DNA of 64,000 nt from a bacterium. GTDB lineage: Bacteria; CLD3; SB21. Position 1 is the stretch's first letter; each line of letters opens with the position of its first letter. Positions 5,819 through 60,523 of the stretch are shown here, piece by piece. The notes under the pieces are model-generated. The model ran no database searches. It was not told the DNA's origin and worked only from the letters and a program-made list of their open reading frames with translations. Where the stretch lies: the NCBI GenBank assembly GCA_013360215.1, contig JABWCP010000001.1:24193-88192 (forward strand), read 5' to 3'. Made by a program: the position numbers and the translations under genes.

Positions 5819-6826
5819 ATGACCACTTCGCCTACTTTAATACAAAAACGCTTTCAATTTCCTCCGGGTCAAAATCCCTTCATAACCGAAGAACAACGTT
5901 TTTTTTCATATAATCATTACATTCGTTCGCGTTTTGGTCAAAGGATTCATCGTGTTACGGTGGATGCCGGATTTACATGCCCCAACCGCGACGGAACGGT
6001 GGCTTCCGGCGGATGTACATATTGTAACAACGACGGTTTCAGCCCGGCTTCGCAGATTTATCGTGTAAAAAAATACCTTAAGCCTTCAACGCCGGTGCAC
6101 GATCAGATAGCCAACCATATTGATGCAATGAAAAAGCGTTTTAAAACGGATAAGTTTTTCGCGTATTTTCAGGCCTATAGCAATACGTATGCGCCGGTGG
6201 ACGAACTCGAAACGCTCTACCGAGAAGCCCTCCGTCATCCGGATATTATCGGTCTTGTCGTTGGGACACGTCCCGATTGTGTGGACGAAGAAAAGCTCCA
6301 GCTTTTACAGTCCATAGCCGAAACTCATTACGTCAGTATCGAATACGGTTGTGAATCCATATACGATAAAACATTACAATGGGTAAATCGCGGACATGAC
6401 TTTGCCTGCTTTATAGACGCGGTCGAAATGAGTGCGGGACGTAATTTGGATGTGGCCGCACATATTATTCTCGGTTTTCCGACCGAAACACGGGACGAGA
6501 TGCTTGCGATGGCTGATGCAATAAATCGCTTACCGGTAGATTTTATAAAGATTCACAACCTCCACATTGTTGCCCAAACGCCACTCGCCTTTCAATACAA
6601 AAAGTCACCTTTCCCTGTGTTTGAGCAACACGAATATGGCATGTTAGTATGTGATTTTCTTGAAAAATTGTCTCCTAACATTTGCATTCAAAGATTATAT
6701 GGCGATGCCCCGCGCGATATGCAAATCGCTCCCCGGTGGTCCACAACCGGCCAGGATATGAATCTTTGGGTTCAGGCCGAGTTGACACGTCGTCAGTCGT
6801 TTCAGGGTATTCGTACAACTGAATGA
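5819..6826 (+). CDS. TIGR01212-family radical SAM protein (YhcC-like)
   Basis: Cys triad CPNRDGTVASGGCTYC with a conserved YhcC-like N-terminus. ATG verified at 5819. Confidence 0.75.
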   Translation: MTTSPTLIQKRFQFPPGQNPFITEEQRFFSYNHYIRSRFGQRIHRVTVDAGFTCPNRDGTVASGGCTYCNNDGFSPASQIYRVKKYLKPSTPVHDQIANHIDAMKKRFKTDKFFAYFQAYSNTYAPVDELETLYREALRHPDIIGLVVGTRPDCVDEEKLQLLQSIAETHYVSIEYGCESIYDKTLQWVNRGHDFACFIDAVEMSAGRNLDVAAHIILGFPTETRDEMLAMADAINRLPVDFIKIHNLHIVAQTPLAFQYKKSPFPVFEQHEYGMLVCDFLEKLSPNICIQRLYGDAPRDMQIAPRWSTTGQDMNLWVQAELTRRQSFQGIRTTE

Positions 6827-6910: not shown

Positions 6911-8071
6911 ATGATAAGCCAAAAAACGATCGAACGGTTATCTAAAATCGGCAGCAGAGATTTTTTTATCACCAGTTTATATCTCAATTTGGATCATACA
7001 CAGAAACACGGTCAATACAAAATCGCTCTGAAAGATCTGCTGAAAGACCGTCGCCATCGTCTGGATGAATTTCGTAAGAATAAAAAAATATCCAAGGAAC
7101 AGATCAAATCGCTCGAAGATGATTTTGTTCGAATTGAAAATTATATCCAGCACGAATTTGTCAGCAAAGATTCCGGAAAAGGATTGGCCATTTTCAGCTG
7201 CAGCGCTACGCATTTCTGGGAAATTCTCGAATTGCCTCAACCGGTTCCCAATCATCTCAATGCCGATTTTGATCCCAATATCCGCATTCTAAGCGAATTA
7301 TTATGCGATTACCGTCACTATGCCATCGCTCTCGTTGATAGCAGCAAAGCTAAAATCGTTGATGTCAATCTGGGTTTCGTTCGTGAAGTGTGGTCTGTCG
7401 AACATGCGATAACCGGCAAAACCAAATTTGGCGGCGTGGATGGCACCCAAGAGCGTAATGCCGAGCGAGCGCACGATGAATCTGTTCATAAACACTTTAA
7501 GGTTGTGGCGACCGAGGTTGAAAAAGTCTTCGATCACAGCGACCATATGTGGCTTATCCTCGGCGGACGGCAAAATTTCCTACCACAGTTCGAGTCTCTT
7601 CTCTCCGCCCCGGTTCGTAAAAAAATTGTCGGCCACATCGTGATTGATCCGGAGGCATCGCTCAACGAAGTTTTGGGCAAAGCGTACACGATCGCCGAAG
7701 AAGCCGAAGCCGCCCATGAAAAAGAAATTATCGAACAATTACGCGGCGAAGCCAGTAACGGCGGTAAAGGAATTTTTGGTCTACAACCTACTCTGCAAAG
7801 CCTCCGCAAAGGCGGCGTAAGCACGCTTGTAGTGACGAAAGGATATCAGGCGCCGGGATTTGTTTGTCATAAATGTTTTTTCATAGGTACTCCTGAGGAA
7901 AAAGGCAAACACGATACTTGCCCGATCTGTTCCGGACCAGCACACAACGTCGAAGATGTCGTCGAAGAGGCTATTACTTTTGCTTATATGCAAGGATGTA
8001 AAGTAGAAACCACCAATGAAAATTCGCGCATGCGTATCATGGGTGATTTTGGAGCGCTACTTAGGTATTGA
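6911..8071 (+). CDS. Bacterial eRF1/Pelota-like protein (baeRF-type release-factor homolog) with a C-terminal zinc ribbon
   Basis: The C-terminal region aligns with eRF1/aRF1/Pelota domain 3: GIFGLQPTLQSLRKGGVSTLVV, an inserted CHKC...CPIC ribbon, and the terminal MGDFGALLRY (compare GGIxxiLRY). The central region FGGVDGTQERNAERAHDESVHKHFKVVATEV resembles the eRF1 GGQ-loop helix. Confidence 0.6.
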   Translation: MISQKTIERLSKIGSRDFFITSLYLNLDHTQKHGQYKIALKDLLKDRRHRLDEFRKNKKISKEQIKSLEDDFVRIENYIQHEFVSKDSGKGLAIFSCSATHFWEILELPQPVPNHLNADFDPNIRILSELLCDYRHYAIALVDSSKAKIVDVNLGFVREVWSVEHAITGKTKFGGVDGTQERNAERAHDESVHKHFKVVATEVEKVFDHSDHMWLILGGRQNFLPQFESLLSAPVRKKIVGHIVIDPEASLNEVLGKAYTIAEEAEAAHEKEIIEQLRGEASNGGKGIFGLQPTLQSLRKGGVSTLVVTKGYQAPGFVCHKCFFIGTPEEKGKHDTCPICSGPAHNVEDVVEEAITFAYMQGCKVETTNENSRMRIMGDFGALLRY

Positions 8072-8148: not shown

Positions 8149-9429
8149 ATGACCAACACACGCTCTGTATTTCTTACGATCTTTGTTCTATGTATCACAC
8201 AAGCCCAAAGTACCAACGGCCAAGATTTAGATCACATCGAAAAATTCAACAGCGTAAAATCCTTATTTACTTCGCGTTGCATTTCTTGCCACGGTGGTGA
8301 TGAACCGGTGGCCGGTCTACGGCTTGATCGCAATCTCTATGCACAGATCGTCAATGTTCCCAGTAACGGCAATCCCGGCTTACATCTCATTCAACCCAAC
8401 TCTCCGGAATCCAGTTACCTTTATCGAAAAGTAGCAATGCAACCGAACGAATTACCCTTTGCGGATGATCCCATGCCGCTGGACGATGTTCCGTTAAGTT
8501 CTTCTGAACTGCAAATCATACGAGAATGGATCGTCTCATTTGATCCGGCCTTATGGCCTGCGGAAAATCAAAATAGCTCGATTGTTCAAAATCCTGCTTC
8601 AGAGATCATACCAAAGTTTTTGGCTACACAATTGATCAATATGCCCACGACACAAACATTGGGTAACCGTAGTGCGGAATTTCGCATCATGCACCGTTTT
8701 GGCTTGATCAACGGCGGTCCCGACGGAGGAAATACGTATGGAGGTTTTTTTGGCATGGATGCAGGTGCTATAACAAGTATCAACCTTTCCATAGCTGTCA
8801 CGAATAATGCGGATATTCTGCTTCGGCGTACTGGAACCAATAAAGATTTTGAATTGGGCGTCAAATACGTGCCGTTTCATTTCAACGAACGTTTTCCGAC
8901 GGATATCGGTTTTTTTGGAAGCGTAGACTGGATTAGCCGGGATGACGTGCCCGCGCGTCATAAATTCTCACCTAATCTCCAAATGATGATCGGTAGCCGC
9001 CCATTTGACAACCTGAGCATACTCGTAGTGCCCGGAATCGCCTTTAAAAGCAATCACAATGCTACGATCACCAAAACGATCAATGATACTACAACCCAAG
9101 CCTATCGCGATACGCGGGCTACTACGGCTATAGGACTGGGGGCGGAATATCTGATAGGCCGAGGCTATGCGATTTCAGGTGAATACATTCCCCGTCTCGG
9201 AGGTTATAAAGGAAATTCGTTTTCAAACGATCGCAGGTTTGATAATTGGAGCCTTGCTTTTTCATACAAAGTTCGCCTCCACGTATTTCAGCTTTTAGTT
9301 TCCAATACCCAAACGATGCATACCACTCAATATTTGCCCGGAAGTTCAACTATTACCAAGAATGCATTATACAATAAGGGCTGGAATTTTCACTTCGGAT
9401 TTAACATATACAGGCAATTCAAATGGTAA
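8149..9429 (+). CDS. Secreted protein: N-terminal mono-heme cytochrome-c domain (planctomycete PSCyt1-like) fused to a predicted outer-membrane beta-barrel
   Basis: Signal peptide, then CISCHGG...GLRLD...SSSELQIIREWI (a CxxCH heme site). Then approx 300 aa of alternating amphipathic strands ending YRQFKW with a C-terminal aromatic residue. Confidence 0.5.
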   Translation: MTNTRSVFLTIFVLCITQAQSTNGQDLDHIEKFNSVKSLFTSRCISCHGGDEPVAGLRLDRNLYAQIVNVPSNGNPGLHLIQPNSPESSYLYRKVAMQPNELPFADDPMPLDDVPLSSSELQIIREWIVSFDPALWPAENQNSSIVQNPASEIIPKFLATQLINMPTTQTLGNRSAEFRIMHRFGLINGGPDGGNTYGGFFGMDAGAITSINLSIAVTNNADILLRRTGTNKDFELGVKYVPFHFNERFPTDIGFFGSVDWISRDDVPARHKFSPNLQMMIGSRPFDNLSILVVPGIAFKSNHNATITKTINDTTTQAYRDTRATTAIGLGAEYLIGRGYAISGEYIPRLGGYKGNSFSNDRRFDNWSLAFSYKVRLHVFQLLVSNTQTMHTTQYLPGSSTITKNALYNKGWNFHFGFNIYRQFKW

Positions 9430-9830
9430 AAGAAATCAAATTATTTTCGTTACTCGTTTTTGTAATGATTTTGTTATCGGCATGCGGCGAATTGAAAGAG
9501 GAATCTCAGCCGACGTTATTAGTACCGACAGATGTGCAGTCTATATTTAATGATCAATGCGTCGGTTGCCACTCCGGCTCTTCCCCTGCGGGATCGCTTA
9601 ACTTGTCCGTGGGTAATGCATATACCCAATTGATCAATGTCACAAGTACTATCGAACCGACATTAAAGCGCGTCGTACCGTCGGATACTGCAAATAGCTA
9701 TCTTGTGGATAAAATTATGGGTACACAAACAGTTGGAGAACGTATGCCGGATGGTGGGCCTTATTTGTCGGCAGCTCAAATGAACATTATCAAATTGTGG
9801 ATTCAAACCGGTGCGGAGGCCAGACCTTAA
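9423..9830 (+). CDS. Lipoprotein with a mono-heme cytochrome-c domain (PSCyt1-like), paralogous to the N-terminus of the upstream gene
   Basis: Lipobox LLSAC. CVGCHSG...SLNLS...AAQMNIIKLWIQTGAEA aligns position by position with the upstream cytochrome domain. Overlaps the upstream gene by 7 nt. Confidence 0.55.
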   Translation: MVKEIKLFSLLVFVMILLSACGELKEESQPTLLVPTDVQSIFNDQCVGCHSGSSPAGSLNLSVGNAYTQLINVTSTIEPTLKRVVPSDTANSYLVDKIMGTQTVGERMPDGGPYLSAAQMNIIKLWIQTGAEARP

Positions 9831-9875: not shown

Positions 9876-11540
9876 TTATTTCATTAGAACTGTTACCACA
9901 GTCCAATATTTGACCGGCACACCACCGGACAAACCCTGTTCGAATAGCCATTGCTTCACAGCGGCGATCGCGGCGTCATTGATCATCTGATCCCAGTCTT
10001 TGTTACCAATGCGTTTGGAAACGTAAATTTCTTCAGGCTTTCCATCTGTTCCAACAAGTACACGCATCGAAACAGTGCCATTCAGCTTAGCCTTTTTAGC
10101 AAGATCAGGCATGACGGGGCTGACTTTTTGAAGAGCTTTAGGATTATTATCTAACTCATTGGCCATCTTTGTGGGCACAAAGACCGGTGCCGCAGGCTTA
10201 GATTCTACTGGCTTAGGCGCAGTTCCTGCGGAAGCGGCATTAGTCGTGGACGCATCCGGAGTAGTGGTCGTTATGGTTGCAGCGGCTTCTTTGTTTACGG
10301 TCACGACAGGCTGTTTTACGGTAGCCGCTGCCGCCGTTTTCTTTTGATCTTCTTCTTGTTGCTTTTGCAATGCAAGACGGCGTTCTTGCTCAATACGAAT
10401 TTGCTCCTGCTGTTTGAGCTGTTCTTCAAGTAAAGCTAAACGCTCTTTTTCCTTACGTGCATCTTCGGCTCGTTTTTGCCGCTCCGATTCGGTTAACCCT
10501 GCCCCGCCGGCTTTATCTGTAGGTTTTGCCTGAGCCAATTGTCTTTTTAAATCTTCGATTTCTTTGCGACGTTTTTCTTGCTCTGCTTTAGTATCCGTCG
10601 GTGCATCGGCCGCGATATTTTTAAACTCCAGATAAGATATGTTACCCGTGCTGTACACCGGCGTAAATACGACGAGACCGAATTTGTTATTCTCATCATC
10701 ATCATGGATAAAGCGATCGGCGTTAAAATTATCACCCCAGTCGTTACGTTGTGCGTAAACGACATTTTTGGTATGATTGTATAGATTAAACTCCAGATTA
10801 TTATAAATAGCATTTTTCCCGCTATTTTCGCCGAGCCGTGTATCGCCGATCAGCGGTTTAGAGACGTCCTGCACTAAAACACCATAACGATTGCCCGTGA
10901 TTTCATTGGCATTGATACTTGGCGATGAATTTATTTTGGCGTTAATACCGGCGTAACCGTTATTCTGTATCTGATTGTTGTTAATTTTAGGTGTGGACAT
11001 AATATCGCAAAGGATACCATTCCAATAATTTCCTTCGATACGATTACGAAATATACGCGGCGCGGAGTTGATACAGGTGATACCGTCGTAGGCAAACTCT
11101 ATCACACAGTTCGATAAAATACTGCGGTCTTCACCCCGACGAAATATCAAACCGTACCAGTCGCCCGCCTGAGGTTGAAGTGTGCTTCCCTTCTCACCCG
11201 GATCGGTGAAATTACTGGAGGTAAACCGTATTTGAAATTTTTCCTGACCTTCGGCGCGTAAAATGCCTTCCACAATCAGTTCAGACTTTGCAACGTCAAT
11301 TCCTCCGGCTTCATCATCCTGGTTCGCCATAAATCGGATCAAGGTATTGGGGCGTATGCGCACAGTAATACCCTCCGGTATCGTGACGTCTCCGGTAACG
11401 GTAATCACGCCTTCCCATGTTTCGTCTTTTCGAATGACGCCGGATTTGTCCGCAGCCCACACTGAAAAACTGTTCACCAGTACAATCGTGAGCAGTATCC
11501 GCAGCCTGCACCTATGGAATTTAAAGAAATTATACGCCAT
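9876..11540 (-). CDS. Secreted right-handed beta-helix repeat protein with a coiled-coil and low-complexity linker and a TonB C-terminal domain
   Basis: Signal peptide MAYNFFKFHRCRLRILLTIVLVNSFSVWA, then parallel beta-helix (NosD/CASH-like) repeats, then an E/K/Q/R-rich coiled coil and a T/A/P-rich linker. The C-terminus VMPDLAKKAKLNGTVSMRVLVGTDGKPEEIYV...AVKQW matches the TonB_C consensus. The ORF-track start at 11582 is GTG. ATG at 11540. Confidence 0.6.
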   Translation of the reverse strand: MAYNFFKFHRCRLRILLTIVLVNSFSVWAADKSGVIRKDETWEGVITVTGDVTIPEGITVRIRPNTLIRFMANQDDEAGGIDVAKSELIVEGILRAEGQEKFQIRFTSSNFTDPGEKGSTLQPQAGDWYGLIFRRGEDRSILSNCVIEFAYDGITCINSAPRIFRNRIEGNYWNGILCDIMSTPKINNNQIQNNGYAGINAKINSSPSINANEITGNRYGVLVQDVSKPLIGDTRLGENSGKNAIYNNLEFNLYNHTKNVVYAQRNDWGDNFNADRFIHDDDENNKFGLVVFTPVYSTGNISYLEFKNIAADAPTDTKAEQEKRRKEIEDLKRQLAQAKPTDKAGGAGLTESERQKRAEDARKEKERLALLEEQLKQQEQIRIEQERRLALQKQQEEDQKKTAAAATVKQPVVTVNKEAAATITTTTPDASTTNAASAGTAPKPVESKPAAPVFVPTKMANELDNNPKALQKVSPVMPDLAKKAKLNGTVSMRVLVGTDGKPEEIYVSKRIGNKDWDQMINDAAIAAVKQWLFEQGLSGGVPVKYWTVVTVLMK

Positions 11541-14500
11541 GCTGGGTTGCCTCAAACATTTCATCCAATAATTGGGGTCCACTCTTGAGCAAATTTTTCA
11601 AAATCGCATCTTTTTCGATCGGTACATCATCAAAAGCTTTTACCGGTTTTTTGACCGTTTTTACCTTGGTTTCCGTTTTCTTTTCTGAAATTACTTTTTC
11701 ATTCGGAGTCACCGCTTTTTCCGGTACTTTATCTAACTTAATCTCTTGGGTAAGCTCAGCTTTGATACGCGCACGGACGTCCTCGTCATTGACGGGTTTG
11801 ATATCGGTGGCTTCAGGTGCTTTTTGTTCATAACTCTGAAGTTTTCCCACGACATCGTCCACATCAACATCCGTACCGGCCGTAAGCTGTTTTAGGCGTT
11901 CAATACTCGTCTCGTAAAGGTCAATCAGTTCCGATGTGACGCGTAATTCGCCCTCATTCATTTTTTCGGCGACCGTTTCCATCGGTTTGACAAGGTTACT
12001 TATCTTTTGGAAGCCCAGCATTTTCGCCGAACTGCGAAGGCTATGCGCCGCTTTTTCGATGTCGCGCATGGATTGCCGATGCGTCATATTATTTCGCAGC
12101 GTACTTAGCGCGGCCCCGATAAGCTTGAAATAGGTGGATACTTCCTCTTTAAAAATATCGACGATCTCTTCATCAATTCCGAGTTTCGAAAAATAATTTT
12201 CTTTGGGAGCAGGTTGAGAAACCTCGGCCGGTTTTACGGGTTCGATAACGGGTTCGGGTTTCTTCTCCGGCACTTTAGTTTCAATGCCTTTATGTTTGGC
12301 TAATGATGCGCTGCCGGGAATGGCGCCTGTAAAAGTACCTGAGGCATTAAGCGAATTTTCCAGTTCAAACAACTGCTGCACCACCTGCGTTACATCCGCC
12401 GCTTTTCGGGCCGCAATCGAACGCAGAGCTGTAGTAATGGACTCCAGTAACGTGACTATCGTCGCATCAACTGATATTTCTTTTTCAACGCACCGTTCCG
12501 TGATGAGTTCTACGGCCGCCGACAAACCGCTGATACGTTCAAATCCAAGCATACGCGCCGAGCTCTTGAGACTATGGCTGGTGCGCTCCAGATCGCGAAT
12601 AGCCACGTCGTCAACTAAAGATTGCTTCAGGCGGGCGAACGCCGTATCAAATTTTTTGAAATATTCGGCGGCCTCTTGATTAAAAATATCCAAAATTTCA
12701 GGATCCACCGTATCAAAAGCTGATTCTTCCAACATCAGTTTTCCTTCGACAACCGATGATTCGACTTTTTCAGTTTTCAGCGGCGGTACTACCGTCATTG
12801 TCTTGAGCGCTTCCTTGACCGATGTCTTTTCGGGAACGGGCTTTACCTGCTCTTTGGGAAGTTCGCTTCTTTTTTTCTTGACCGTACGGCGACCGCCCGT
12901 GATGATATCTTTGGGTTCCGTATTAAGGCGTTCGGCAAAAGAAGGGATACGTAACCCATTCAATTCATCATCGGCATCACCGGCTGCCATCATAGCTAAT
13001 AAGGCTTTGGGAACTTCGATTTCTATCGTTTTAGTGTCATCCGTGACCGGCGAAGCGAGTATGGACTGACGATCATCTGCTTTTTTATCAGAGGCTGCTT
13101 TTTTTATCTCTTCCGCCGGTTTTACATCGATCTTGTTTTGTACAACGGTTTCAGCGACAAATTTAGGTTTATCTTCAACAGCCGGCAAAATAGTCTTCGT
13201 AGGTATTACACTTTGTGTACGCGTTTCTTCTTCGATTTGTAAAGTCGAATCCTTGGTATCTTTTTCAATGGGTTCAACTTTTTCCGCTTTGATATGTTGC
13301 GCAATCGGAGAATCGTTAAATTTTGCAACGACCGACTGAAATCCCTCAAGCCAGTCCGTGTTTTGTGCTACTACGGACTTCGGATCGGATATCGGTTTTG
13401 AAGACTCTTTGGGAGTTTTTATTTCCGTTTTTATAACTTCTGGCGCAACTACTTTTGTATGCTCAGATGGTGCGGCGCTTATCTCAGTCGGTTTAGCGGG
13501 TGTTACAAATGCCGTGGCTTGTTTATAATCCGAAAAACGAACCGATTGATCACTGAGCCATCGCCATTCATCGGACTGAATCGTTTGCCCGTTGACTAAA
13601 ATTTCGATACTGCGCGTCGATCGCGTCACAAGGGTGATCAATTCCGCAACGACAGGGCTTTGCGAGTAAACTACTTGTTTGAAAATCTGGAAGACCGCGT
13701 CACAATGGCCGTGCAGTAAATTGATTTTTAATAACCGCGTATTGGTCGACAGGGCACGATATACCTGCAAAAGATCTTTGATTGCTTCGGTGTCATGCGT
13801 AGCTTTTTTAAGACGGGCTAACGCCGACTGCGCCAATTCTAAATTAAACCGCACATCTTCGGCAAATACATTCCAGTCATCGTCTTGTATCGCAACACGA
13901 TCAATAGCGATTTCATTTTCAGAAACAGACTGTGCACTTGAACTTGACACCTGAACCGGCAATTCTGCAGGTTTTTCCAAATTAAATGAACCGGTAAACC
14001 GTTGCTGTAGCCGCAAAATTTCTGCAGGTGCTAGCGATTTTAAATCTGATTTATTGTTTTCGACCTGTTGAATTAAATCGTGCAACACGGCTAAGGCCTC
14101 TGGGTTCAGAGGTTTGTGATTATTATCCGCAATCGCATTCAGCGTTTCTTCGATCCGCTGGGTCGCCTCGGACAATGGCATTGCATTTTGTGTGGCGGCC
14201 TCCGCTCTGAGTTGCGACAAACCATCAGCCATGCTTATCAGAAATCGAGGCCGTGTCAGATTATCCCGCAACGTCTCCCATGCACTATTCAATCGGTCCG
14301 TAGAAAAAACCGACCGGACAGCATTTATGTTTCCTTTCGGCTCATTTTTTTCGGTTGATTGAACAGTTTGTGCAACCGATTTTTCAGGTTGTTTTTTTGT
14401 ACGCCGTGACAGGAATCCGATCATATCACCCACATGATCAAACGCTTCGGATTGCGTTATAGGCGCAACTTCCAGTAGCGAAGATTGCGGTGATGCGGAC

Positions 14501-15075
14501 GTCACCGATGTTTTTTCATGGGTAGGCTCTACACGGGAGGTATCGCGAGAAAAAGAGGGATCGTTTTTAACCACAGGTGAAGCAGTGGGTTCTGCTTTTA
14601 CGTCAGCGGAGATCGGTTTTACCTCATCCTTGGGCGTCCCTTCCGTTGGAGACGGCGTATCTTCTTGCTTGATATACGTTTTTCGTAAGGCCGGCAAATC
14701 GAGCGAAAAACCGATGGTTTGTAAATCGCTATTGAGTTGATCTTGTGAACCGGGTGTTTCTAAAATCTTTTGAAACATCTGAATGATCCGCTCGGAATCA
14801 TTTTCGAGCGTCGTGATCATCTGGCTCATCTTGTAGCCGGACTTTTCTAATTTCTCCAGGTTACTACGCAAAAACGTGGCAACCGGATGGAGCGATGCCA
14901 CGTTGAGAAAAGATTCAACCTGGCGAACCGGCTCTTGCGCTTGTCCGATGGATACGATTATTTTTTTGGTAATACTGAATTCAAGTGGTGCAAAACGATG
15001 TTCGGAAACACTTTTGACATGATTCAGTAATTCCGAAAGATAAAATTCTACGATTTTTCGCGATTTATTGTCCAA
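11530..15075 (-). CDS. Large multi-HPt (histidine phosphotransfer) scaffold protein, ChpA/FimL-like, with no kinase domain
   Basis: Two canonical HPt boxes, LERTSHSLKSSARMLGFERISGL and IEKAAHSLRSSAKMLGFQKISNL, plus an upstream degenerate HPt-like region (YRALSTNTRLLKI, His lost) and long S/T/P/E/K-rich disordered segments. No HisKA or HATPase domains. Annotated start is TTG. Confidence 0.6.
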   Translation of the reverse strand: MDNKSRKIVEFYLSELLNHVKSVSEHRFAPLEFSITKKIIVSIGQAQEPVRQVESFLNVASLHPVATFLRSNLEKLEKSGYKMSQMITTLENDSERIIQMFQKILETPGSQDQLNSDLQTIGFSLDLPALRKTYIKQEDTPSPTEGTPKDEVKPISADVKAEPTASPVVKNDPSFSRDTSRVEPTHEKTSVTSASPQSSLLEVAPITQSEAFDHVGDMIGFLSRRTKKQPEKSVAQTVQSTEKNEPKGNINAVRSVFSTDRLNSAWETLRDNLTRPRFLISMADGLSQLRAEAATQNAMPLSEATQRIEETLNAIADNNHKPLNPEALAVLHDLIQQVENNKSDLKSLAPAEILRLQQRFTGSFNLEKPAELPVQVSSSSAQSVSENEIAIDRVAIQDDDWNVFAEDVRFNLELAQSALARLKKATHDTEAIKDLLQVYRALSTNTRLLKINLLHGHCDAVFQIFKQVVYSQSPVVAELITLVTRSTRSIEILVNGQTIQSDEWRWLSDQSVRFSDYKQATAFVTPAKPTEISAAPSEHTKVVAPEVIKTEIKTPKESSKPISDPKSVVAQNTDWLEGFQSVVAKFNDSPIAQHIKAEKVEPIEKDTKDSTLQIEEETRTQSVIPTKTILPAVEDKPKFVAETVVQNKIDVKPAEEIKKAASDKKADDRQSILASPVTDDTKTIEIEVPKALLAMMAAGDADDELNGLRIPSFAERLNTEPKDIITGGRRTVKKKRSELPKEQVKPVPEKTSVKEALKTMTVVPPLKTEKVESSVVEGKLMLEESAFDTVDPEILDIFNQEAAEYFKKFDTAFARLKQSLVDDVAIRDLERTSHSLKSSARMLGFERISGLSAAVELITERCVEKEISVDATIVTLLESITTALRSIAARKAADVTQVVQQLFELENSLNASGTFTGAIPGSASLAKHKGIETKVPEKKPEPVIEPVKPAEVSQPAPKENYFSKLGIDEEIVDIFKEEVSTYFKLIGAALSTLRNNMTHRQSMRDIEKAAHSLRSSAKMLGFQKISNLVKPMETVAEKMNEGELRVTSELIDLYETSIERLKQLTAGTDVDVDDVVGKLQSYEQKAPEATDIKPVNDEDVRARIKAELTQEIKLDKVPEKAVTPNEKVISEKKTETKVKTVKKPVKAFDDVPIEKDAILKNLLKSGPQLLDEMFEATQHGV

Positions 15076-15091
15076 TGTGTATCATCCATAC

Positions 15092-15122
15092 AAAAAAACC
15101 CTAAAACACGTTTAGGGTTTTT
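15092..15122. terminator. Bidirectional hairpin/terminator between the response-regulator gene and the multi-HPt gene
   Basis: ccctaaa / tttaggg stem, flanked by A7 upstream and T5 downstream. It sits 17 nt before the multi-HPt start. Confidence 0.45.
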
Positions 15123-15146
15123 ACGATTTACGCGATGCTATGGCGT

Positions 15147-16001
15147 TTATTTACCGAGATATTCGTGTACTTTGGCAAGCAAGTCTTCATCATGGAACGG
15201 CTTATTGAGGAAATCCGTCGCGCCGTTGCTGATCGCAGCGTCTTTGTCTTGTGGACTGTCTTTACCGCTCAACACGACGATCGGCACCGTGGCAAAATAT
15301 CCGCCTGATTCACGCAACGCTTTCATCACTTCAACACCGGTCATATCAGGCAACATCATATCCAGAAGAATCAGACTGGGCTGCATCTCTTTAGCTTTGT
15401 TGATCGCATCTTCGCCTTTCATGGCCGACGTCAGATTGTAATTATCATTCTCCAACGCGATCTCAACCATTTTTTGAATCACGATACTGTCATCCACGAC
15501 AAGTATCTTTCGACCGCCGGCCGACGCAGAAGCGGCCGGAGCTACCGGTTTGGGCGCCGCTTTTTCTACTTTGGGTTCCGGTTTGGGTTCGACCTTAGGC
15601 GAATCCATTGAACCCAAAATGTCGGTTTCTTCTTTTTTAGGCACAGGCTTGGGTTCCGGTGCTTTTTCAATTTTCGGCTCCGGTTTCGGTTCTGCTTTAG
15701 GTTCCGGCTTCGGTTCCGCTTTCGCTTTAGGCACTTCTTCTTTGACGGCTTTCTTCGACGGCGCTTTCTCTTTCGCCGGTTTAGCCGCCGGAGCAGGAGC
15801 ACCGCCGGATATCAATTTTTCAGCAGATAGTTTTTGTAAAATTTCTTCGACCAACGTTGCATCGCGATCCAGTTTTTCTGCGATATCGGCCACATTGCGT
15901 TTACCGTCAACAGAAAACAAAACACGCCATTCAATTTTTTTCAACAGAATGGTTTCAACTTTTTCTCGTAAGTCTTTTACTCTGGAGTAAACTGCGTCCA
16001 C
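15147..16001 (-). CDS. Response regulator: N-terminal wHTH-like domain, Pro/Lys/Glu-repeat linker, C-terminal receiver (REC) domain
   Basis: C-terminal REC: KILVVDDSIVIQKMVE...LILLDMMLPDMTGVEV...TVPIVVLSGK. The linker carries AEPKPEPK tandem repeats. GTG start. Confidence 0.7.
   Translation of the reverse strand: MDAVYSRVKDLREKVETILLKKIEWRVLFSVDGKRNVADIAEKLDRDATLVEEILQKLSAEKLISGGAPAPAAKPAKEKAPSKKAVKEEVPKAKAEPKPEPKAEPKPEPKIEKAPEPKPVPKKEETDILGSMDSPKVEPKPEPKVEKAAPKPVAPAASASAGGRKILVVDDSIVIQKMVEIALENDNYNLTSAMKGEDAINKAKEMQPSLILLDMMLPDMTGVEVMKALRESGGYFATVPIVVLSGKDSPQDKDAAISNGATDFLNKPFHDEDLLAKVHEYLGK
15560..15800. repeat. Short tandem nucleotide repeat encoding (E/A/V)PKP(E) units in the response-regulator linker
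   Basis: Reiterated units such as aaaccggagccgaaa and gaaccgaaaccggag. The mirror-frame + strand ORF (GSGLGS-rich) is a translation artefact of the same repeat. Confidence 0.4.
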
Positions 16002-16100
16002 AATATACCTCGCCGCTTTATGATGATGAACCTGTGAGTATTCAAATCGTGTTAATAACTTTGTAAATCTAATAAAGATAAATCATTATGTCAATAAGTT

Positions 16101-16976
16101 TCAATGCCTTTTCTCTCGTTTTCTGAAAAAAGAAATCAGCGCTTCGGCATAATCACTACCCGTAAAAATATTGATCAGATCAACGCGACTGCGTTTGAAA
16201 ATTTCCTTCAATCTGTTTTCTTCGGCATCAACGCGCTGACGTAATATCGCATGGAACTGTTGATCCGCTGTGTCGATATCAATCAACGCTCCGGTCTCTT
16301 CGTCTTCCAGTGTCACCAGGCCGACCTGAGGCCAATTGTGCTCGCGCTGATCGGCGACCCGAAGACCGATCACGTCGTGCTTTTTAGCTAAGGTACGCAA
16401 GGAGGTATCAAAGCCCTGATCGAGAAAATCGCTGATTACAAAAACGATACTGCGGCGTTTGAGAATGTGCGATGTCAACTCCAGCGGAGCCGCAATGCGT
16501 GTACCGCGTGCTTTAGGCGCAAACGCGATCAGCTCGCGGATCAGACGCAACACATGAGAACGGCCTTTTTTCGGCGGAATAAATTTTTCAACTTCTTCCG
16601 TATAAATCATTAAGCCAACTTTATCATTATTTTTGATCGCGCTAAATGCCACTACCGCCGCCATTTCGATCATCAGTTCCCTTTTGGTCTGCTTATTCGT
16701 ACCAAAATCCCCTGATGCGCTGGCGTCAAAAATGATCATTAGCGTCTGCTCACGCTCTTCTTCAAATATTTTGAGGTAAGGTTTATCCAACCGCGCCGAG
16801 ACATTCCAATCGATAAAACGGATTTCATCGCCGAACTGATATTCGCGCACTTCTGAAAAAGACATTCCGCGCCCTTTGAAAACCGAATGGTATTCACCAC
16901 TAAAAACATTATTGACCAATCCGCGTGTTTTAATTTCGATACGCCGCACATTGCGGAGTAATTCTTTAGTTTCCAT
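16101..16976 (-). CDS. DUF58 family (vWA-like, normally MoxR-associated) protein
   Basis: DUF58 hallmarks FSGEYHSVFKGRGMSFSEVREYQFGDEIRFIDW and LMIIFDASASGDFG...IVFVISDF. Confidence 0.7.
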   Translation of the reverse strand: METKELLRNVRRIEIKTRGLVNNVFSGEYHSVFKGRGMSFSEVREYQFGDEIRFIDWNVSARLDKPYLKIFEEEREQTLMIIFDASASGDFGTNKQTKRELMIEMAAVVAFSAIKNNDKVGLMIYTEEVEKFIPPKKGRSHVLRLIRELIAFAPKARGTRIAAPLELTSHILKRRSIVFVISDFLDQGFDTSLRTLAKKHDVIGLRVADQREHNWPQVGLVTLEDEETGALIDIDTADQQFHAILRQRVDAEENRLKEIFKRSRVDLINIFTGSDYAEALISFFRKREKRH

Positions 16977-56434: not shown

Positions 56435-57526
56435 TTAGAGTAATTCCGATAATAGCGGCGCTTGTTTTTTAAAAGCCATCCGAAGTCCGCCGAGATTGAC
56501 TTCCGGTTCGCATAAGACAAATAACCATTCTTTGCGACCGGGCACTGGCGCCATGAAAATGGTTTTCTTATTGAAATCAAGAGTGATAAAACGAAGCCCT
56601 TCGCCTTTCAGTTCCGTATCCACTTTCAGCAGATATTCCAAGCCTGGTGGAATGATCGTACTCAGAAGCGTGATATCCATACGCTCTTCTTTTTTTTCAT
56701 TAAAAAGCGACGCTCTCGAAAACCCGGCATCATCGATCACAGCTACCAGATCCACACCTTTGATTTTGATAAACTCCGCTATAGATGACTTTATTTTTTC
56801 GAGCATCTCCTGACGCGATTCTTCTTTGATCTGCGTTTTCGTCTCGGGCGAATATTCATCTTTGCGGCGCATTCCTTCCAATAAAAGACTTTGCCACCCT
56901 TTATCTATAGTCTCTTTTTCGGGATCTTCACCTTTACGAAATTCAAAACGTCCGTTTTCCCATGCCAATATTTTATAAAACGCTTCTTCGCCGATCAGCG
57001 TACCGCATTCGGCATGAACAATATTACCATCACTAAAGTATAATGTTCCCTTCTCTTCATCTTTGTTTACCACCAAGGCGGCTTTCATACGCCCGAGTAT
57101 ATTCATTTGGATAAGATCGGACAACTGAAAGTCGGAAACTTTACCGTCAAATCCTTTTTTCTCCGTCAGTGCACGGTGTATCAGCGTACGCAGCTCTTCG
57201 ATTTCAAACGGTTTTTCGATGTAGTACAACGAACCGCGATCCGTAGCTTCACGTTGAACTTCGGCGGAACCAAAGGCTGTCATAATGATAACCTTGGTTG
57301 TCGAATACGTTTCTTTGATTTTTACAAGCAGTTCCAACCCGGACATACCCGGCATTTTGATGTCGCTTACTACCAGATCCACAGGTAATTGGGAAAGAAC
57401 ATTAAGCGCCTCTTGAGCGTTATTGACACAGATCAGGTCAAAACTATCCTTGTCTTTAGATAAATTTTTGGAAATGCTCCACGTAAGGTCTTCTTCGTCG
57501 TCAACTATGAGTACTTTTTTTTGCAT
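56435..57526 (-). CDS. Response-regulator receiver protein with a DUF4388 domain and a C-terminal roadblock-like segment
   Basis: REC: KVLIVDDEED...DLVVSDIKMPGMSGLEL. The DUF4388 pattern is FQLSDLIQMNILGRMKAALVV...GTLYFSDGNIVHAECGTLIGEEAFYKILAWENGRFEF. Confidence 0.65.
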   Translation of the reverse strand: MQKKVLIVDDEEDLTWSISKNLSKDKDSFDLICVNNAQEALNVLSQLPVDLVVSDIKMPGMSGLELLVKIKETYSTTKVIIMTAFGSAEVQREATDRGSLYYIEKPFEIEELRTLIHRALTEKKGFDGKVSDFQLSDLIQMNILGRMKAALVVNKDEEKGTLYFSDGNIVHAECGTLIGEEAFYKILAWENGRFEFRKGEDPEKETIDKGWQSLLLEGMRRKDEYSPETKTQIKEESRQEMLEKIKSSIAEFIKIKGVDLVAVIDDAGFSRASLFNEKKEERMDITLLSTIIPPGLEYLLKVDTELKGEGLRFITLDFNKKTIFMAPVPGRKEWLFVLCEPEVNLGGLRMAFKKQAPLLSELL

Positions 57527-57539
57527 ATGGATTTAACGG

Positions 57540-59654
57540 TTAGATGGTTGTTGTCAATGTATGCCGGTTTTCCAATATAGATTTTGATTTTTCTGCACAA
57601 GGTATGTGCATGATGAATGTTGTACCTTTACCCGGTACACTTTCCACTTTGATTTCACCTCCGTGCTCCTGCACGATACGATACACGATCGAAAGACCTA
57701 ACCCGATACCACCGGGTTTAGTCGTAAAAAAAGGATCAAAAATGGAACGAACTTGCTCTTGAGGAATACCTTTCCCCGTATCGCTGACGCGTATTTCCGC
57801 CATAGTTACCGGTAAATCATAGTTATTCAGCGGTGTACGCTGAACGGATTGAGCAAGGATCGCGATGCGCCCTCCTTGACCGATCGCATCCATAGCGTTC
57901 ATCATAAGATTAAGCATGACTTGCGAAAATTGATTTTCATCCACCTCGATGGGCACAAGTTTTTCGTCATACGCTTCGTGTATTTCGATGTGATCCGTCT
58001 CGGCACGCGCTTTCAAAAGAGCCTTGATTTCTTGTATCAGTTCCGGCAGTGCACAGGCTTTTTTCTCCGGGCGCACGGGTTTGGCATAGGTGAAAAAAGC
58101 TTTAAGCAAATCGTTGAGCCGGTTAATCTGTTTGATAATGCGATAAACATACTCATGGCGCGGGTCATCGGGCGGCAGTTCCTTTTGAAGGGCCTGTGCG
58201 ATGGTTTTAATGCCCGCCAAAGGGTTGCGAATTTCATGCGCAATGGCACTGGTCAATGCGCCCGATGCGGCGAGACGATCCATTCGCATGATCGTCTCAT
58301 GCATGGATTTGACCAGGGAAATATCTTTGAAACTGATAATATACCCTACCATGTTGTGGTCGACGTCGTAACGCATAGTGGTCGTAAAACCTAGAAAAAG
58401 GCGTGTACCGTCTTTTTGTCGAACCTGCACCTCCGCATTGCCCGGGGCGGATTCATTTTCTACCGTCGGATGAAGCATGCGTGAGGCCTCTTCGCGACCA
58501 AAAATTGTTTCCATTTTGTGATCGAGCAATTCGTTATCGGAATATCCTAAAATGGATTTGGCGGCACGATTGACAAATAAAATGCGCCCGGAAAAATCAG
58601 CCGTGATGATACCGGCGCTGACATTGTGCAAAATACTCTCATTAAAATTTTTCAAATCCACCAATGCATGCGTCGCCTGCCGAATTTGATCCTGCAAGTT
58701 ACGATTGAAATCCGACAACTTATTAAAAAGCTGCATATTCTCCATCGCTAAGGCGATTTGACCGGACACCGTCATGAGTAATGAAAGGTCGCCGTGTTCG
58801 AAACCCATCTGTGTTTTTTTATTGATGATCATCATCACCCCCATGAGCTGACCGCGTATGTATATGGGTGTACATATCGCTGCACGCAACGGATTGGGCG
58901 TCAGTGCATAAATCGCCGCGGGTATCCTTTCATCGCGAACGGCATCATTGACGATCATCGGCTTTTCATAACGCTCGATATATTCAAAAATCGAACCGCC
59001 ATGCGGTAATAACGTCCCGATGTGTTTTTCGGAAATATGAGATGACAATGTATGAATCGCCCAGTCCGATCCTTCCCGCGTTATGAGCAGAGCAACTTCG
59101 ACGCCAAACGCGGCCGTTATTTTATCAATAATTTCCGCTAATACGATTTTCTGTTCTTTGAGCGAAATAACAATCCGCGCTATGTCCGATAGAAGTTGCA
59201 GTTCGCGGGTACGTTCTTCTAATTTACGTTTTTCGGTTTCTTTTTCAGATATCAAATTTTCCAAACGATCGTGCAGATGCTTGATGCGCAAGAGGTTGAC
59301 GACACGCGACAACAGTTCGACACGATTGTACGGTTTCGTGATAAATTCGTCCGCACCCGCCTGTATCGCGCGATTGCGCGTTACTTTATCGGACATACCG
59401 GAAGCCAGCATCACCGGAATATGCCGCGTTCGTTCGCTCTCTTTAAGCAAACGGCACACCTGAAAGCCGTCCATCGCATACGTATCGGTAGCAATCAGCG
59501 CCAAATCATAATCGAGGCTTTTTACCTTATCGAGCACATCGTGGCCGTCATGTGCATGAACCAATGCATAATCGTTGGAGACGAGAATTTCCGTCAATGC
59601 GGACGCGGAGTCCGGATGCGGGTCACAAATTACGATAGTGGCTTTTTTCTTCAT
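57540..59654 (-). CDS. Hybrid sensor: REC, GAF, PAS, HisKA and HATPase histidine kinase
   Basis: N-terminal REC (LALIATDTYAMDG), GAF and PAS segments, H-box AHEIRNPL, and the G-boxes DTGKGIP and GGIGLGLSI. Confidence 0.85.
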   Translation of the reverse strand: MKKKATIVICDPHPDSASALTEILVSNDYALVHAHDGHDVLDKVKSLDYDLALIATDTYAMDGFQVCRLLKESERTRHIPVMLASGMSDKVTRNRAIQAGADEFITKPYNRVELLSRVVNLLRIKHLHDRLENLISEKETEKRKLEERTRELQLLSDIARIVISLKEQKIVLAEIIDKITAAFGVEVALLITREGSDWAIHTLSSHISEKHIGTLLPHGGSIFEYIERYEKPMIVNDAVRDERIPAAIYALTPNPLRAAICTPIYIRGQLMGVMMIINKKTQMGFEHGDLSLLMTVSGQIALAMENMQLFNKLSDFNRNLQDQIRQATHALVDLKNFNESILHNVSAGIITADFSGRILFVNRAAKSILGYSDNELLDHKMETIFGREEASRMLHPTVENESAPGNAEVQVRQKDGTRLFLGFTTTMRYDVDHNMVGYIISFKDISLVKSMHETIMRMDRLAASGALTSAIAHEIRNPLAGIKTIAQALQKELPPDDPRHEYVYRIIKQINRLNDLLKAFFTYAKPVRPEKKACALPELIQEIKALLKARAETDHIEIHEAYDEKLVPIEVDENQFSQVMLNLMMNAMDAIGQGGRIAILAQSVQRTPLNNYDLPVTMAEIRVSDTGKGIPQEQVRSIFDPFFTTKPGGIGLGLSIVYRIVQEHGGEIKVESVPGKGTTFIMHIPCAEKSKSILENRHTLTTTI

Positions 59655-59754: not shown

Positions 59755-60459
59755 TTAAACCAAATCTTTTTTAAATTTTTCAAAATCTCTGATCACAAGT
59801 TTATTACCATCTTTAGATACATAACCATCATTGATAAAACGCTGTAGCACCCGGGAGATCGTCTCGCGACTTGTTCCTGACATATTGGCCAAGTCCTGTT
59901 GCGTCGGTAAATTGGGAATTTCGATGGTACTGCCGTTATTGGGAATACCAATATCTTCGGCTAAGCGTGCGATCGTACCGGCTACTTTGCCGGTCGAATT
60001 TTTCAGCGATAGATTTTTAATCTGAGAATCGGATTTTCGCATACGACTTGCCAATTCACGCAGAAGTTGGATAGCGATTTGCGGAAATTCACTAAGTAAG
60101 TTGAGAAAATCATCCCGGTTAATAAGAAGCATCTCTGCATCTTTTGTACAAACCACATTAGCCGAACGCGACTGGCCATCTAGCAACGACAATTCGCCAA
60201 AAAAATCTCCCTCCGCCATAACAGCCAATATTACTTCACGGCCATCTTCACTGATGCGTGAAATTTTGACTTGCCCGGTCATCACAATAAAGAGCGTTTG
60301 GCCGCCTTCATCCTCGAAAAGCACAACCTGCTCTTTTGTGTAACTGCGTTGAAAGGCTACGTTCGCTATTTTCTCCAGGTCTTTAATACCAAGGCCGGAA
60401 AAAATAGGTACTATTTTTAGCGTCTCAAGTTTCCGCGTTACGGATTTGTTATCGTTCAT
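59755..60459 (-). CDS. Crp/Fnr-family transcriptional regulator
   Basis: cNMP-binding GDFFGELSLLDG, and the C-terminal HTH TQQDLANMSGTSRETISRVLQ. The ORF-track start at 60516 is TTG. ATG at 60459. Confidence 0.8.
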   Translation of the reverse strand: MNDNKSVTRKLETLKIVPIFSGLGIKDLEKIANVAFQRSYTKEQVVLFEDEGGQTLFIVMTGQVKISRISEDGREVILAVMAEGDFFGELSLLDGQSRSANVVCTKDAEMLLINRDDFLNLLSEFPQIAIQLLRELASRMRKSDSQIKNLSLKNSTGKVAGTIARLAEDIGIPNNGSTIEIPNLPTQQDLANMSGTSRETISRVLQRFINDGYVSKDGNKLVIRDFEKFKKDLV

Positions 60460-60523
60460 AGATATTGTTTGAAGGGATTTTGGAACGGCACAAAGTACAA
60501 TATTCGCATCCTGCAATCAAGAA

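Follow-up and report, generated by a model that had tools for sequence, protein, structure and literature searches.

The window considered here is a stretch of 64,000 nucleotides from a bacterial contig (JABWCP010000001.1, assembly GCA_013360215.1, positions 24,193 to 88,192), and the genes of interest lie together on its minus strand. They encode a response regulator, a large protein with several histidine phosphotransfer (HPt) domains and no kinase of its own, and a secreted beta-helix protein that ends in a TonB_C domain. A sequence-only reading of this DNA had described four same-strand genes as a signalling cluster, and the four open reading frames (ORFs) are found where it had placed them, with the same domain assignments. 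A DUF58/VWA gene lies at 16976..16101 (Pfam DUF58 7.7e-79, and VWA_2). It is followed by the gene for the regulator of 284 amino acids at 16001..15147 (Pfam Response_reg 1e-26), the gene for the multi-HPt protein of 1181 amino acids at 15075..11530 (Pfam Hpt 8e-26, three stretches), and a gene that ends at 9876 and encodes 554 amino acids from an ATG at 11540, with Pfam matches to Beta_helix (5e-11), NosD (1.5e-9) and TonB_C (4.7e-10). A GTG at 11582 is the other possible start of this last gene. If the ATG is used, the gene overlaps the HPt gene (TAA stop at 11532-11530) by 11 nucleotides, as had been proposed, and a short signal peptide with an A-x-A-type site at its end, seen at the N-terminus of each of 25 homologues, speaks for this start. 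The HPt gene and its beta-helix/TonB_C neighbour make a conserved pair and are probably co-translated.

The DUF58 gene has to be separated from the other three. It is missing from locus L005 and from all of the Calditrichota loci described below, and in two further loci (L001 and L012) three opposite-strand genes stand between it and the regulator. Its linkage is thus not conserved, and the gene is an adjacent neighbour, not the cluster member that the sequence-only reading had made of it. The conserved unit consists of three genes: regulator, HPt protein and beta-helix/TonB_C protein. No minus-strand terminator-like site was found inside this unit. In the gap between the DUF58 and regulator genes there is a sigma-70-like near-consensus site (TTGACA-17-TAGATT, window 16066-16094, minus strand), which would fit an independent promoter for the three genes, although such sites are not above the expectation from shuffled sequence. 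Bacteroidota-type promoters differ from the sigma-70-like consensus.

The 1181 amino acid protein had been described as having two intact HPt boxes, one degenerate HPt-like region and no kinase domain, and profile searches bear this out. Pfam PF01627 (Hpt) scores 90.5 bits against a cut-off of 24.6, spread over three stretches, and there is no match to HisKA, HATPase_c, H-kinase_dim or CheW (Pfam, E <= 1). The domain called C here covers residues 789-889 (12409..12711, minus strand; hidden Markov model (HMM) E 1.9e-41), and its phospho-acceptor is H834 (nucleotides 12574-12576) in the box HSLKSSARMLGF (nucleotides 12576-12541). This residue is a histidine in 13 of 13 orthologues as well as in every member of the motif comparison. 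Domain D covers residues 966-1067 (11875..12180, minus strand; HMM E 3.6e-44), with the acceptor H1011 (nucleotides 12043-12045) in the box HSLRSSAKMLGF (nucleotides 12045-12010), which is a histidine in 92% of the orthologues and a glutamine in L005. A phmmer comparison of domain D with the P1 domain of Thermotoga maritima CheA (2ld6/1tqg; E 1.6e-6) aligns the histidine on the phospho-acceptor histidine of CheA. In Foldseek searches the HPt bundles resemble CheA P1 (1tqg, template modelling (TM) score 0.90) and P1 of CheA3 from Rhodobacter sphaeroides (3kyj, TM 0.81). Domains C and D thus both have a conserved acceptor histidine within a four-helix bundle, and the surrounding HSL[KR]SSA[KR]MLG box is kept across sequences that are otherwise only 30-40% identical. 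Domain B (residues 402-497; 13585..13872, minus strand; family HPt HMM E 1.3e-8) is degenerate, with Arg440 in place of the acceptor histidine. Arginine or lysine is found at this position in most of the lineage, while L017 and L005 have kept the histidine.

Outside the HPt domains, two further parts of the protein are conserved. The first is an N-terminal helical domain (residues 1-130; 14686..15075, minus strand) that is common to the N-terminus of ChpA, the kinase of type IV pilus-class chemosensory systems. In an alignment of 23 sequences from both lineages discussed here, F11 is invariant and Y12 and E15 nearly so; no sequence relative was found for the domain in the PDB. The second is a lineage-specific C-terminal motif, F-x-D-[IV]-x4-[DE]-P-I-[LF]-K-x8-L-L-x-[DE]-M, at residues 1148-1173 (11557..11634, minus strand), which is present in 14 of 15 HPt-only orthologues and missing from L005 and from all Calditrichota ChpA sequences. 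AlphaFold places helices at 1157-1164 and 1168-1180 in this region, which is a possible docking peptide. We considered whether the C-terminal tail is a remnant of the CheA dimerisation domain P3 and rejected this, the tail motif being without a counterpart in ChpA. H19 as an additional phospho-site was also rejected, as it is conserved within the window's lineage only and not in Calditrichota. The AlphaFold model of the whole protein was built from a shallow alignment of 3 sequences, has a predicted local distance difference test (pLDDT) score of 50, and is confident for the three HPt bundles only. It places helical bundles at 390-510 (domain B, pLDDT ~80), 780-920 and 965-1085, with disordered linkers at 135-250 and 518-777 and a helical N-terminal domain of low confidence. 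For about 55% of the residues the pLDDT is < 50.

A kinase-less gene of this kind could be an artefact of assembly or a frameshift. This was rejected: the ORF is intact in ~15 independent metagenome-assembled genomes (MAGs), is overlapped by the downstream gene, and has a dN/dS of 0.16-0.18 in three close orthologue pairs (~0.17). Together with the conserved histidine boxes and receiver residues and the new C-terminal motif, this shows that the HPt-only gene is functional and under purifying selection.

The nature of the unit becomes clear from its relatives. We scanned one genome per species for the beta-helix/TonB_C gene and mapped its neighbours by tblastn and by calling genes and searching them with Pfam. 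The gene is found in ~15 MAGs labelled Bacteroidota or "bacterium" at 55-64% identity, and in ~18 Calditrichota genomes, including a MAG of Caldithrix abyssi, at 27-35% identity. The Bacteroidota-labelled loci have the same arrangement as the window: DUF58, regulator, an HPt-only protein of 850-1160 amino acids, and beta-helix/TonB_C. In the Calditrichota loci the order is a ParA-like ATPase, a helix-turn-helix (HTH) and receiver (REC) regulator, CheW, a methyl-accepting chemotaxis protein (MCP), a ChpA-type kinase, beta-helix/TonB_C and a PF01676 metalloenzyme. Clusters of MCP, CheW and CheA genes are therefore present in the Calditrichota loci and absent from the window and ~15 related loci. 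The Calditrichota ChpA is a single ORF of ~1800 amino acids in 11 genomes. At L007:4223-9831 it is split into ORFs of 1400 and 468 amino acids with a 1-nucleotide overlap, and given the intact ORF in the 11 others this is probably due to a frameshift or an assembly error. The ParA-like ATPase gene opens the Calditrichota operon (L007:186-953, and in the same position in L023, L028-L030 and L037-L040); by analogy with ParC/PpfA, the ATPase may position the signalling array. The operon is closed by the PF01676 metalloenzyme gene (~300 amino acids, L007:11397-12305, and in the same position in those other loci), which overlaps the beta-helix/TonB_C gene and is not found in the window's lineage.

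The Calditrichota ChpA consists of the N-terminal helical domain, a degenerate HPt domain with glutamine or lysine at the acceptor position, three HPt domains with histidines, H-kinase_dim, HATPase_c, a CheW-like domain and a receiver domain. When the two families are aligned by hhalign, window residues 8-1083 are colinear with ChpA residues 10-992 of 1813 (probability 100, E 7.7e-44), so the ChpA/FimL-type identity suggested by the sequence-only reading stands, with the match falling on the N-terminal ~990 residues of ChpA. The histidine boxes of domains C and D (HSLKSSARMLG and HSLRSSAKMLG) are nearly the same as in the first and the second histidine-bearing HPt domains of ChpA; that of the first reads HSLKSSARLMG in Calditrichota and matches domain C. 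The third one, a canonical CheA-like HTLKGSA domain that adjoins the dimerisation domain, is missing from the window protein together with everything downstream. The window's lineage is thus without cheW, mcp, parA and the 3' two-fifths of chpA (last HPt, P3, P4, P5 and REC). We consider it rather probable, in one joint judgement with the mechanism set out further below, that the three-gene unit descends, in reduced form, from a chemosensory operon of the ChpA type (type IV pilus-class-like) and is without that operon's kinase, receptor and coupling protein. The set had been called a system that is not described; as a derivative of the ChpA-type operon it does have known relatives, and what stands of the claim is the beta-helix/TonB_C protein, of which we found no description in the literature searched.

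The closest known class is the Pil-Chp system of Pseudomonas aeruginosa (PilG-PilH-PilI-PilJ-ChpA). The likeness lies in a multi-HPt CheA with a C-terminal receiver, seen in the Calditrichota orthologue and homologous in its N-terminal part to the window protein. In addition, a regulator gene opens the cluster, and the best relatives outside the window family are annotated as ChpA. Some of the HPt-like domains of the Pil-Chp ChpA are also non-phosphorylatable (PMC12632253). The window differs from Pil-Chp in being without a kinase core, CheW, MCP, CheB and CheR, in having no pil genes nearby, and in its invariant beta-helix/TonB_C gene; the Calditrichota form differs further in beginning with a ParA-like ATPase. 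The genome paper on C. abyssi reports flagellar and type IV pilus clusters (PMC5317091), and a term search of its text found no mention of a ChpA/TonB_C operon.

If the HPt domains are phosphorylated, the phosphate has to come from elsewhere. Pfam scans of essentially all ORFs of at least 150 amino acids revealed no genes for CheA, CheW, MCP, pilus proteins, ExbBD or TonB-dependent receptors in the 64-kb window, and tblastn of the Calditrichota CheW, MCP and kinase core against the window gave receiver-domain matches only. The one kinase in the window has REC-GAF-PAS-HisKA-HATPase architecture (57540..59654, minus strand), lies 42 kb away and is unrelated, so the view that no cognate kinase is encoded nearby holds. 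The gene for a REC-DUF4388 (PATAN) regulator (56435..57526, minus strand) follows this kinase, and a gene for a Crp-like regulator that binds cyclic nucleotide monophosphates (59755..60516, minus strand) precedes it. These three genes make up a second signalling set; PATAN-REC regulators are usually tied to the control of pilus or gliding motility. When the Calditrichota kinase core was searched against a database, the matches were Calditrichota orthologues (at least 42% identity), followed by generic ChpA/PixL proteins at ~30-35%; two of the matches (P0059 and P0061) belong to unrelated assemblies.

These results bear on the possibility that the kinase has been split, with a separate P3-P4-P5 protein encoded elsewhere in the genome that phosphorylates H834 and H1011 in trans, in which case the module would remain a genuine pathway of the CheA type with chemoreceptors as its input. 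Such an arrangement is established for CheA3 and CheA4 of R. sphaeroides, where an HPt protein without P3 and P4 is phosphorylated in trans and hands the phosphate to a regulator (PMC3591291). It would suit the conserved acceptor histidines as well as the likeness of domains C and D to CheA P1 in both sequence and fold, CheA3-P1 being among the closest structures. CheA3, however, retains P5 and is encoded beside CheA4 and receptors, whereas the window protein has no P5, and CheW and MCP genes are missing both from the window and from ~15 x 20 kb of related loci. No kinase core from the window's lineage is among the best 120 matches, which is weak evidence since that search did not cover whole genomes of the lineage. 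The HTLKGSA-type HPt beside the kinase core, furthermore, is the very domain that has been lost. On balance we regard a split kinase as possible but rather doubtful, and because in full ChpA it is precisely this lost HPt that borders the kinase core, we favour a relay that is fed by receiver domains.

Another possibility is that the protein carries no phosphate at all. FimL is a stand-alone, kinase-less homologue of the ChpA N-terminus with HPt-like domains that acts with the Chp pathway (PMC3019171, PMC12632253). It has glutamine at both acceptor sites and works without canonical phosphotransfer (PMC3019171). At the pole, FimL binds PilG and FimV. The window protein is likewise a kinase-less homologue of the ChpA N-terminus, and its bundles, N-terminal domain and C-terminal motif could serve purely to hold the regulator and its partners together. 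A scaffolding role has been proposed for some of the Xpt domains of ChpA (PMC12632253), domain B has already degenerated, the C-terminal motif is new and docking-like, and the large share of residues with low pLDDT is consistent with long disordered linkers. What makes a pure scaffold less likely is that the acceptors of FimL are glutamines, while here the histidine boxes are kept, with H834 invariant and H1011 nearly so, and that the adjacent receiver retains every catalytic residue. The non-phosphorylatable feature of FimL is therefore not shared. Nor is its genetic setting: FimL is a paralogue that exists beside a full ChpA, whereas the window protein occupies the ChpA position of the operon and is, at 1181 amino acids, twice as long. 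Pfam FimL_C was not detected in the window protein, and only a "faint" match was seen in the L001 orthologue. We thus hold a scaffold without phosphotransfer to be unlikely. Histidine phosphotransfer between receiver domains without a kinase in the same protein is also known from LuxU, Ypd1 and HptB. Domain C matches LuxU at E 2.5e-5, which is weak and far below the cut-off, and Ypd1 and HptB are matched weakly by fold. Those proteins, however, are single domains of ~110-170 amino acids, and the window protein is a multi-domain CheA derivative.

The response regulator encoded next to the HPt protein has a MarR-like HTH domain (residues 1-67), a linker of ~100 amino acids rich in proline, lysine and glutamate, and a receiver domain (166-278). 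The catalytic residues of the receiver (D170/D171, D214, S245 and K267) are intact and conserved in both lineages. The regulator that is encoded first in the ChpA operon of Calditrichota is its orthologue over the full length (33% identity, tblastn 2.7e-35), and its GTG start at 16001 is backed by the conserved N-terminus M-[DE]-x-V-[YF]-x-R. It differs from the single-domain regulators PilG and PilH in having the N-terminal HTH-like domain and the long linker. The profile of this N-terminal domain matches HTH regulators of the MarR type (AdcR, 5yhz, E 3.5e-4), and judging from its sequence a transcriptional or protein-binding output via these 67 residues is possible. A PATAN identity of the domain was also considered and rejected; there is no DUF4388 match, and the weak MarR-type match was found instead.

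The third gene of the unit encodes a protein for which Pfam and AlphaFold agree on the architecture that had been proposed, namely a signal peptide, a beta-helix, a helical segment, a T/A/P linker and TonB_C. All of its parts are on the minus strand: the signal peptide comprises residues 1-29 (nucleotides 11454-11540, from the family alignment), the beta-helix 30-295 (10656-11453, Pfam and AlphaFold), the long helical segment 318-406 (10323-10589, AlphaFold), the linker 409-452 (10185-10316, disordered in AlphaFold) and TonB_C 457-553 (9882-10172, Pfam and Foldseek). The family alignment of 26 sequences has a conserved signal peptide and 52 invariant columns. The AlphaFold model based on it (pLDDT 75.6) shows a signal helix at 3-23, the beta-helix at 30-295 (pLDDT ~90), two helices at 318-337 and 351-406 that are separated by a break modelled with low confidence (339-349), and, at 457-553, an alpha/beta domain. 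This last domain superposes on solved C-terminal domains of TonB (Foldseek TM 0.69-0.82, probability 1.00; 6i97_D TM 0.82). Profile searches put TonB_C (PF03544, 40.2 bits against a cut-off of 24.6), Beta_helix (PF13229, 42.9 bits) and NosD (PF05048, 38 bits) above their cut-offs, while TIGR01352 stays below its own (23.1 against 27.1). The beta-helix fold weakly resembles AlgG, AlgE4, tailspikes and pectate lyases in Foldseek. A TonB_C tail of the type found in AgmX/PglI of Myxococcus was considered and dropped (E 0.042, far below the cut-off). The family is compact, with ~50 clusters at 50% identity among 1.8 billion representatives.

The sequence-only reading took this protein for a TonB domain relocated from its usual inner-membrane context onto a soluble beta-helix. 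As far as the fold is concerned this is correct, a TonB_C fold being indeed present on a secreted beta-helix protein. A genuine TonB energy transducer it cannot be, because a cleavable signal peptide replaces the anchor that is coupled to ExbBD. Besides this coupling, a TonB energy transducer is marked by its binding of the Ton box of an outer-membrane transporter. We found no uncleaved N-terminal anchor of the TonB type, no histidine-containing anchor motif, and no exbBD genes in the window; the predicted signal peptide supports a cleaved, soluble, exported product. Taken as a whole, the original view of a self-contained four-gene system, or of a genuine TonB transducer moved onto a beta-helix, can point to the common strand, to the synteny of the genes in close relatives of the window and to TonB_C as a bona fide Pfam and structural match. 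It has to contend with a DUF58 gene that does not stay with the other three, with the missing anchor, which precludes coupling to ExbBD, with the TIGR01352 score, and with the absence of ExbBD and TonB-dependent receptor genes from the window. The comparative data largely refute it, and we regard it as very improbable.

What ties the beta-helix/TonB_C protein to the signalling proteins is the position of its gene. In all ~35 orthologous loci with enough upstream sequence it lies directly downstream of the ChpA or HPt gene, and the genes on the far side of the pair vary (cytochrome c/DUF5777, GFO_IDH or Metalloenzyme). Locus L005 (45% identity) has the HPt-only and beta-helix/TonB_C pair alone, in an unrelated neighbourhood and without the regulator. 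The most faithfully kept partner of this ChpA lineage, in two phylum-level groups, is thus the secreted beta-helix/TonB_C protein. The term "effector" that had been given to it is unproven; coupling to the pathway is inferred solely from the invariant adjacency of the genes. It is worth asking, then, whether the gene could be an unrelated neighbour, encoding a periplasmic or surface glycan-binding protein that sits beside chpA by inheritance and not by function. The two products belong to different compartments, all of the evidence for coupling is positional, and giant proteins with no role in signalling contain this beta-helix module as well, in 4-22 tandem copies. Against this, the adjacency holds across both phylum-level groups although the far-side genes differ, the pair outlasts the kinase, CheW, MCP and in L005 even the regulator, and the gaps between the genes are short, down to the 11-nucleotide overlap. 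An accidental neighbour therefore appears improbable to us.

The module in question is ~270 amino acids long (profile ~20-290), and the proteins in which it is repeated have 1000-7400 amino acids (P0160-P0308). There are 17 copies in a protein of 4806 amino acids and 22 in one of 5408, and six tandem matches lie in L042:8672-17946. It has the look of a unit from which giant proteins, presumably at the surface, are built, and this recurrence in tandem suits a beta-helix that binds or has a structural role more than one that acts as an enzyme.

There is a precedent for a gene of the TonB family next to a Pil-Chp cluster: tonB3 of P. aeruginosa adjoins pilG-chpA. The gene (PA0406/PA14_05300) is two locus tags away from pilG (PA14_05320, in the cluster PA14_05320-05390; PMC6321873). 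It is needed for twitching, pilus assembly and polar localisation by a mechanism that is unexplained (PMC6321873, PMC5285504, PMC12838275), and TonB3 possibly contacts the N0 domain of PilQ (PMC5285504). The comparison holds at the level of the TonB_C fold. TonB3 is anchored in the inner membrane and works with the ExbBD-like PocAB, whereas the window protein is soluble and secreted, with the beta-helix and long helix replacing the anchor and the proline-rich rod.

The overall explanation that we favour, and to which the joint judgement given above applies, is a reduced ChpA-type unit with a working HPt hub that is FimL-like yet phosphorylatable and fed in trans. The HPt protein would be a cytoplasmic phosphotransfer hub and scaffold, in which H834 and H1011 are phosphorylated in trans and pass phosphoryl groups to and from D214 of the HTH-REC regulator encoded next to it. 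The receiver domain of a hybrid kinase or of a regulator, or else a separately encoded CheA-type kinase core, would act as the donor, and the output would likely go through the small HTH-like domain of the regulator. A cleavable Sec signal peptide would take the downstream protein out of the cytoplasm. Once in the periplasm, the protein may dock through TonB_C on a strand of an outer-membrane beta-barrel (Ton-box-like) or on peptidoglycan, with the helical segment of ~90 residues and the 45-residue linker acting as a spacer and the beta-helix binding a glycan or protein partner. Without a membrane anchor there would be no energising by ExbBD, and the protein would therefore be a passive periplasmic tether or adaptor and not a TonB.

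Several points weigh against this explanation. The phosphodonor was not found, and no kinase-core orthologue could be traced to the window's lineage in the 120 best matches mentioned above. The HPt protein is expected in the cytoplasm and the TonB_C protein in the periplasm, and no membrane protein that could bridge the two is left in the reduced cluster. The connection to pili is by analogy only, with no pil genes adjacent in any of the loci. DNA binding by the regulator is uncertain, as its HTH-like domain has no wing and the MarR match is weak. Promoter-like sites are not more numerous in the region than in shuffled sequences, and the count of terminator-like sites is only ~2 standard deviations above them. 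In addition, that the kinase, receptor and coupling protein were lost, as opposed to gained, is an assumption.

A more far-reaching proposal is that the beta-helix/TonB_C protein is an obligatory periplasmic component of the ChpA pathway, serving as an ExbBD-independent tether to the outer membrane or cell wall, and that the kinase-less remnant is a free-standing, multi-site phosphorelay node between ChpA and FimL that is fed by unrelated kinases. We offer this tentatively and would not call it likely. If it is true, the tether would link the signalling apparatus, or a structure under its control such as a pilus or secretin, to the envelope, in a partnership important enough to outlast kinase, receptor and coupling protein. 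This would be an undescribed, envelope-linked branch of the pilus-class chemosensory systems in the FCB superphylum, and it would give an independent handle on the need for TonB3 in type IV pili. Whether or not this proposal is true, the faithful retention of the TonB_C partner parallels that unexplained requirement in Pseudomonas pilus assembly, and the HPt protein stands, as a form found in nature, midway between the complete ChpA kinase and a scaffold like FimL: its kinase core is gone, and the two acceptor histidines and the partner receiver are kept under selection. This bears on the auxiliary HPt domains of ChpA-type kinases, some of which can apparently function without a kinase in cis. 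Two things are new here, namely a secreted TonB_C partner that is invariant and a ChpA intermediate that is kinase-less yet phosphorylatable. As Caldithrix abyssi is cultured and has the complete operon, the link between pathway and partner can be tested.

The rest of the window shows a few features in the vicinity of these genes and beyond. A gene at 8149..9429 (plus strand), in whose product a PSCyt1 haem-binding domain is fused to a DUF5777 outer-membrane beta-barrel, overlaps a small c-type cytochrome gene (9423..9830, plus strand). Both are convergent toward the beta-helix/TonB_C gene, and their synteny is limited to the window's lineage. Upstream of them, a radical SAM gene (5819..6826, plus strand) is followed by a gene for an eRF1-like protein of baeRF family 10 (6911..8071, plus strand), and the synteny of these two genes extends to L001 and L003. 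Searches of the window for Rfam families and for tRNAs were negative. At 25437-32141 (plus strand) there is a gene for a protein of 2234 amino acids with seven lamin-tail domains, CARDB and a C-terminal domain of the FlgD_ig type, apparently one of the large secreted or surface proteins that are typical for bacteria of the FCB group.

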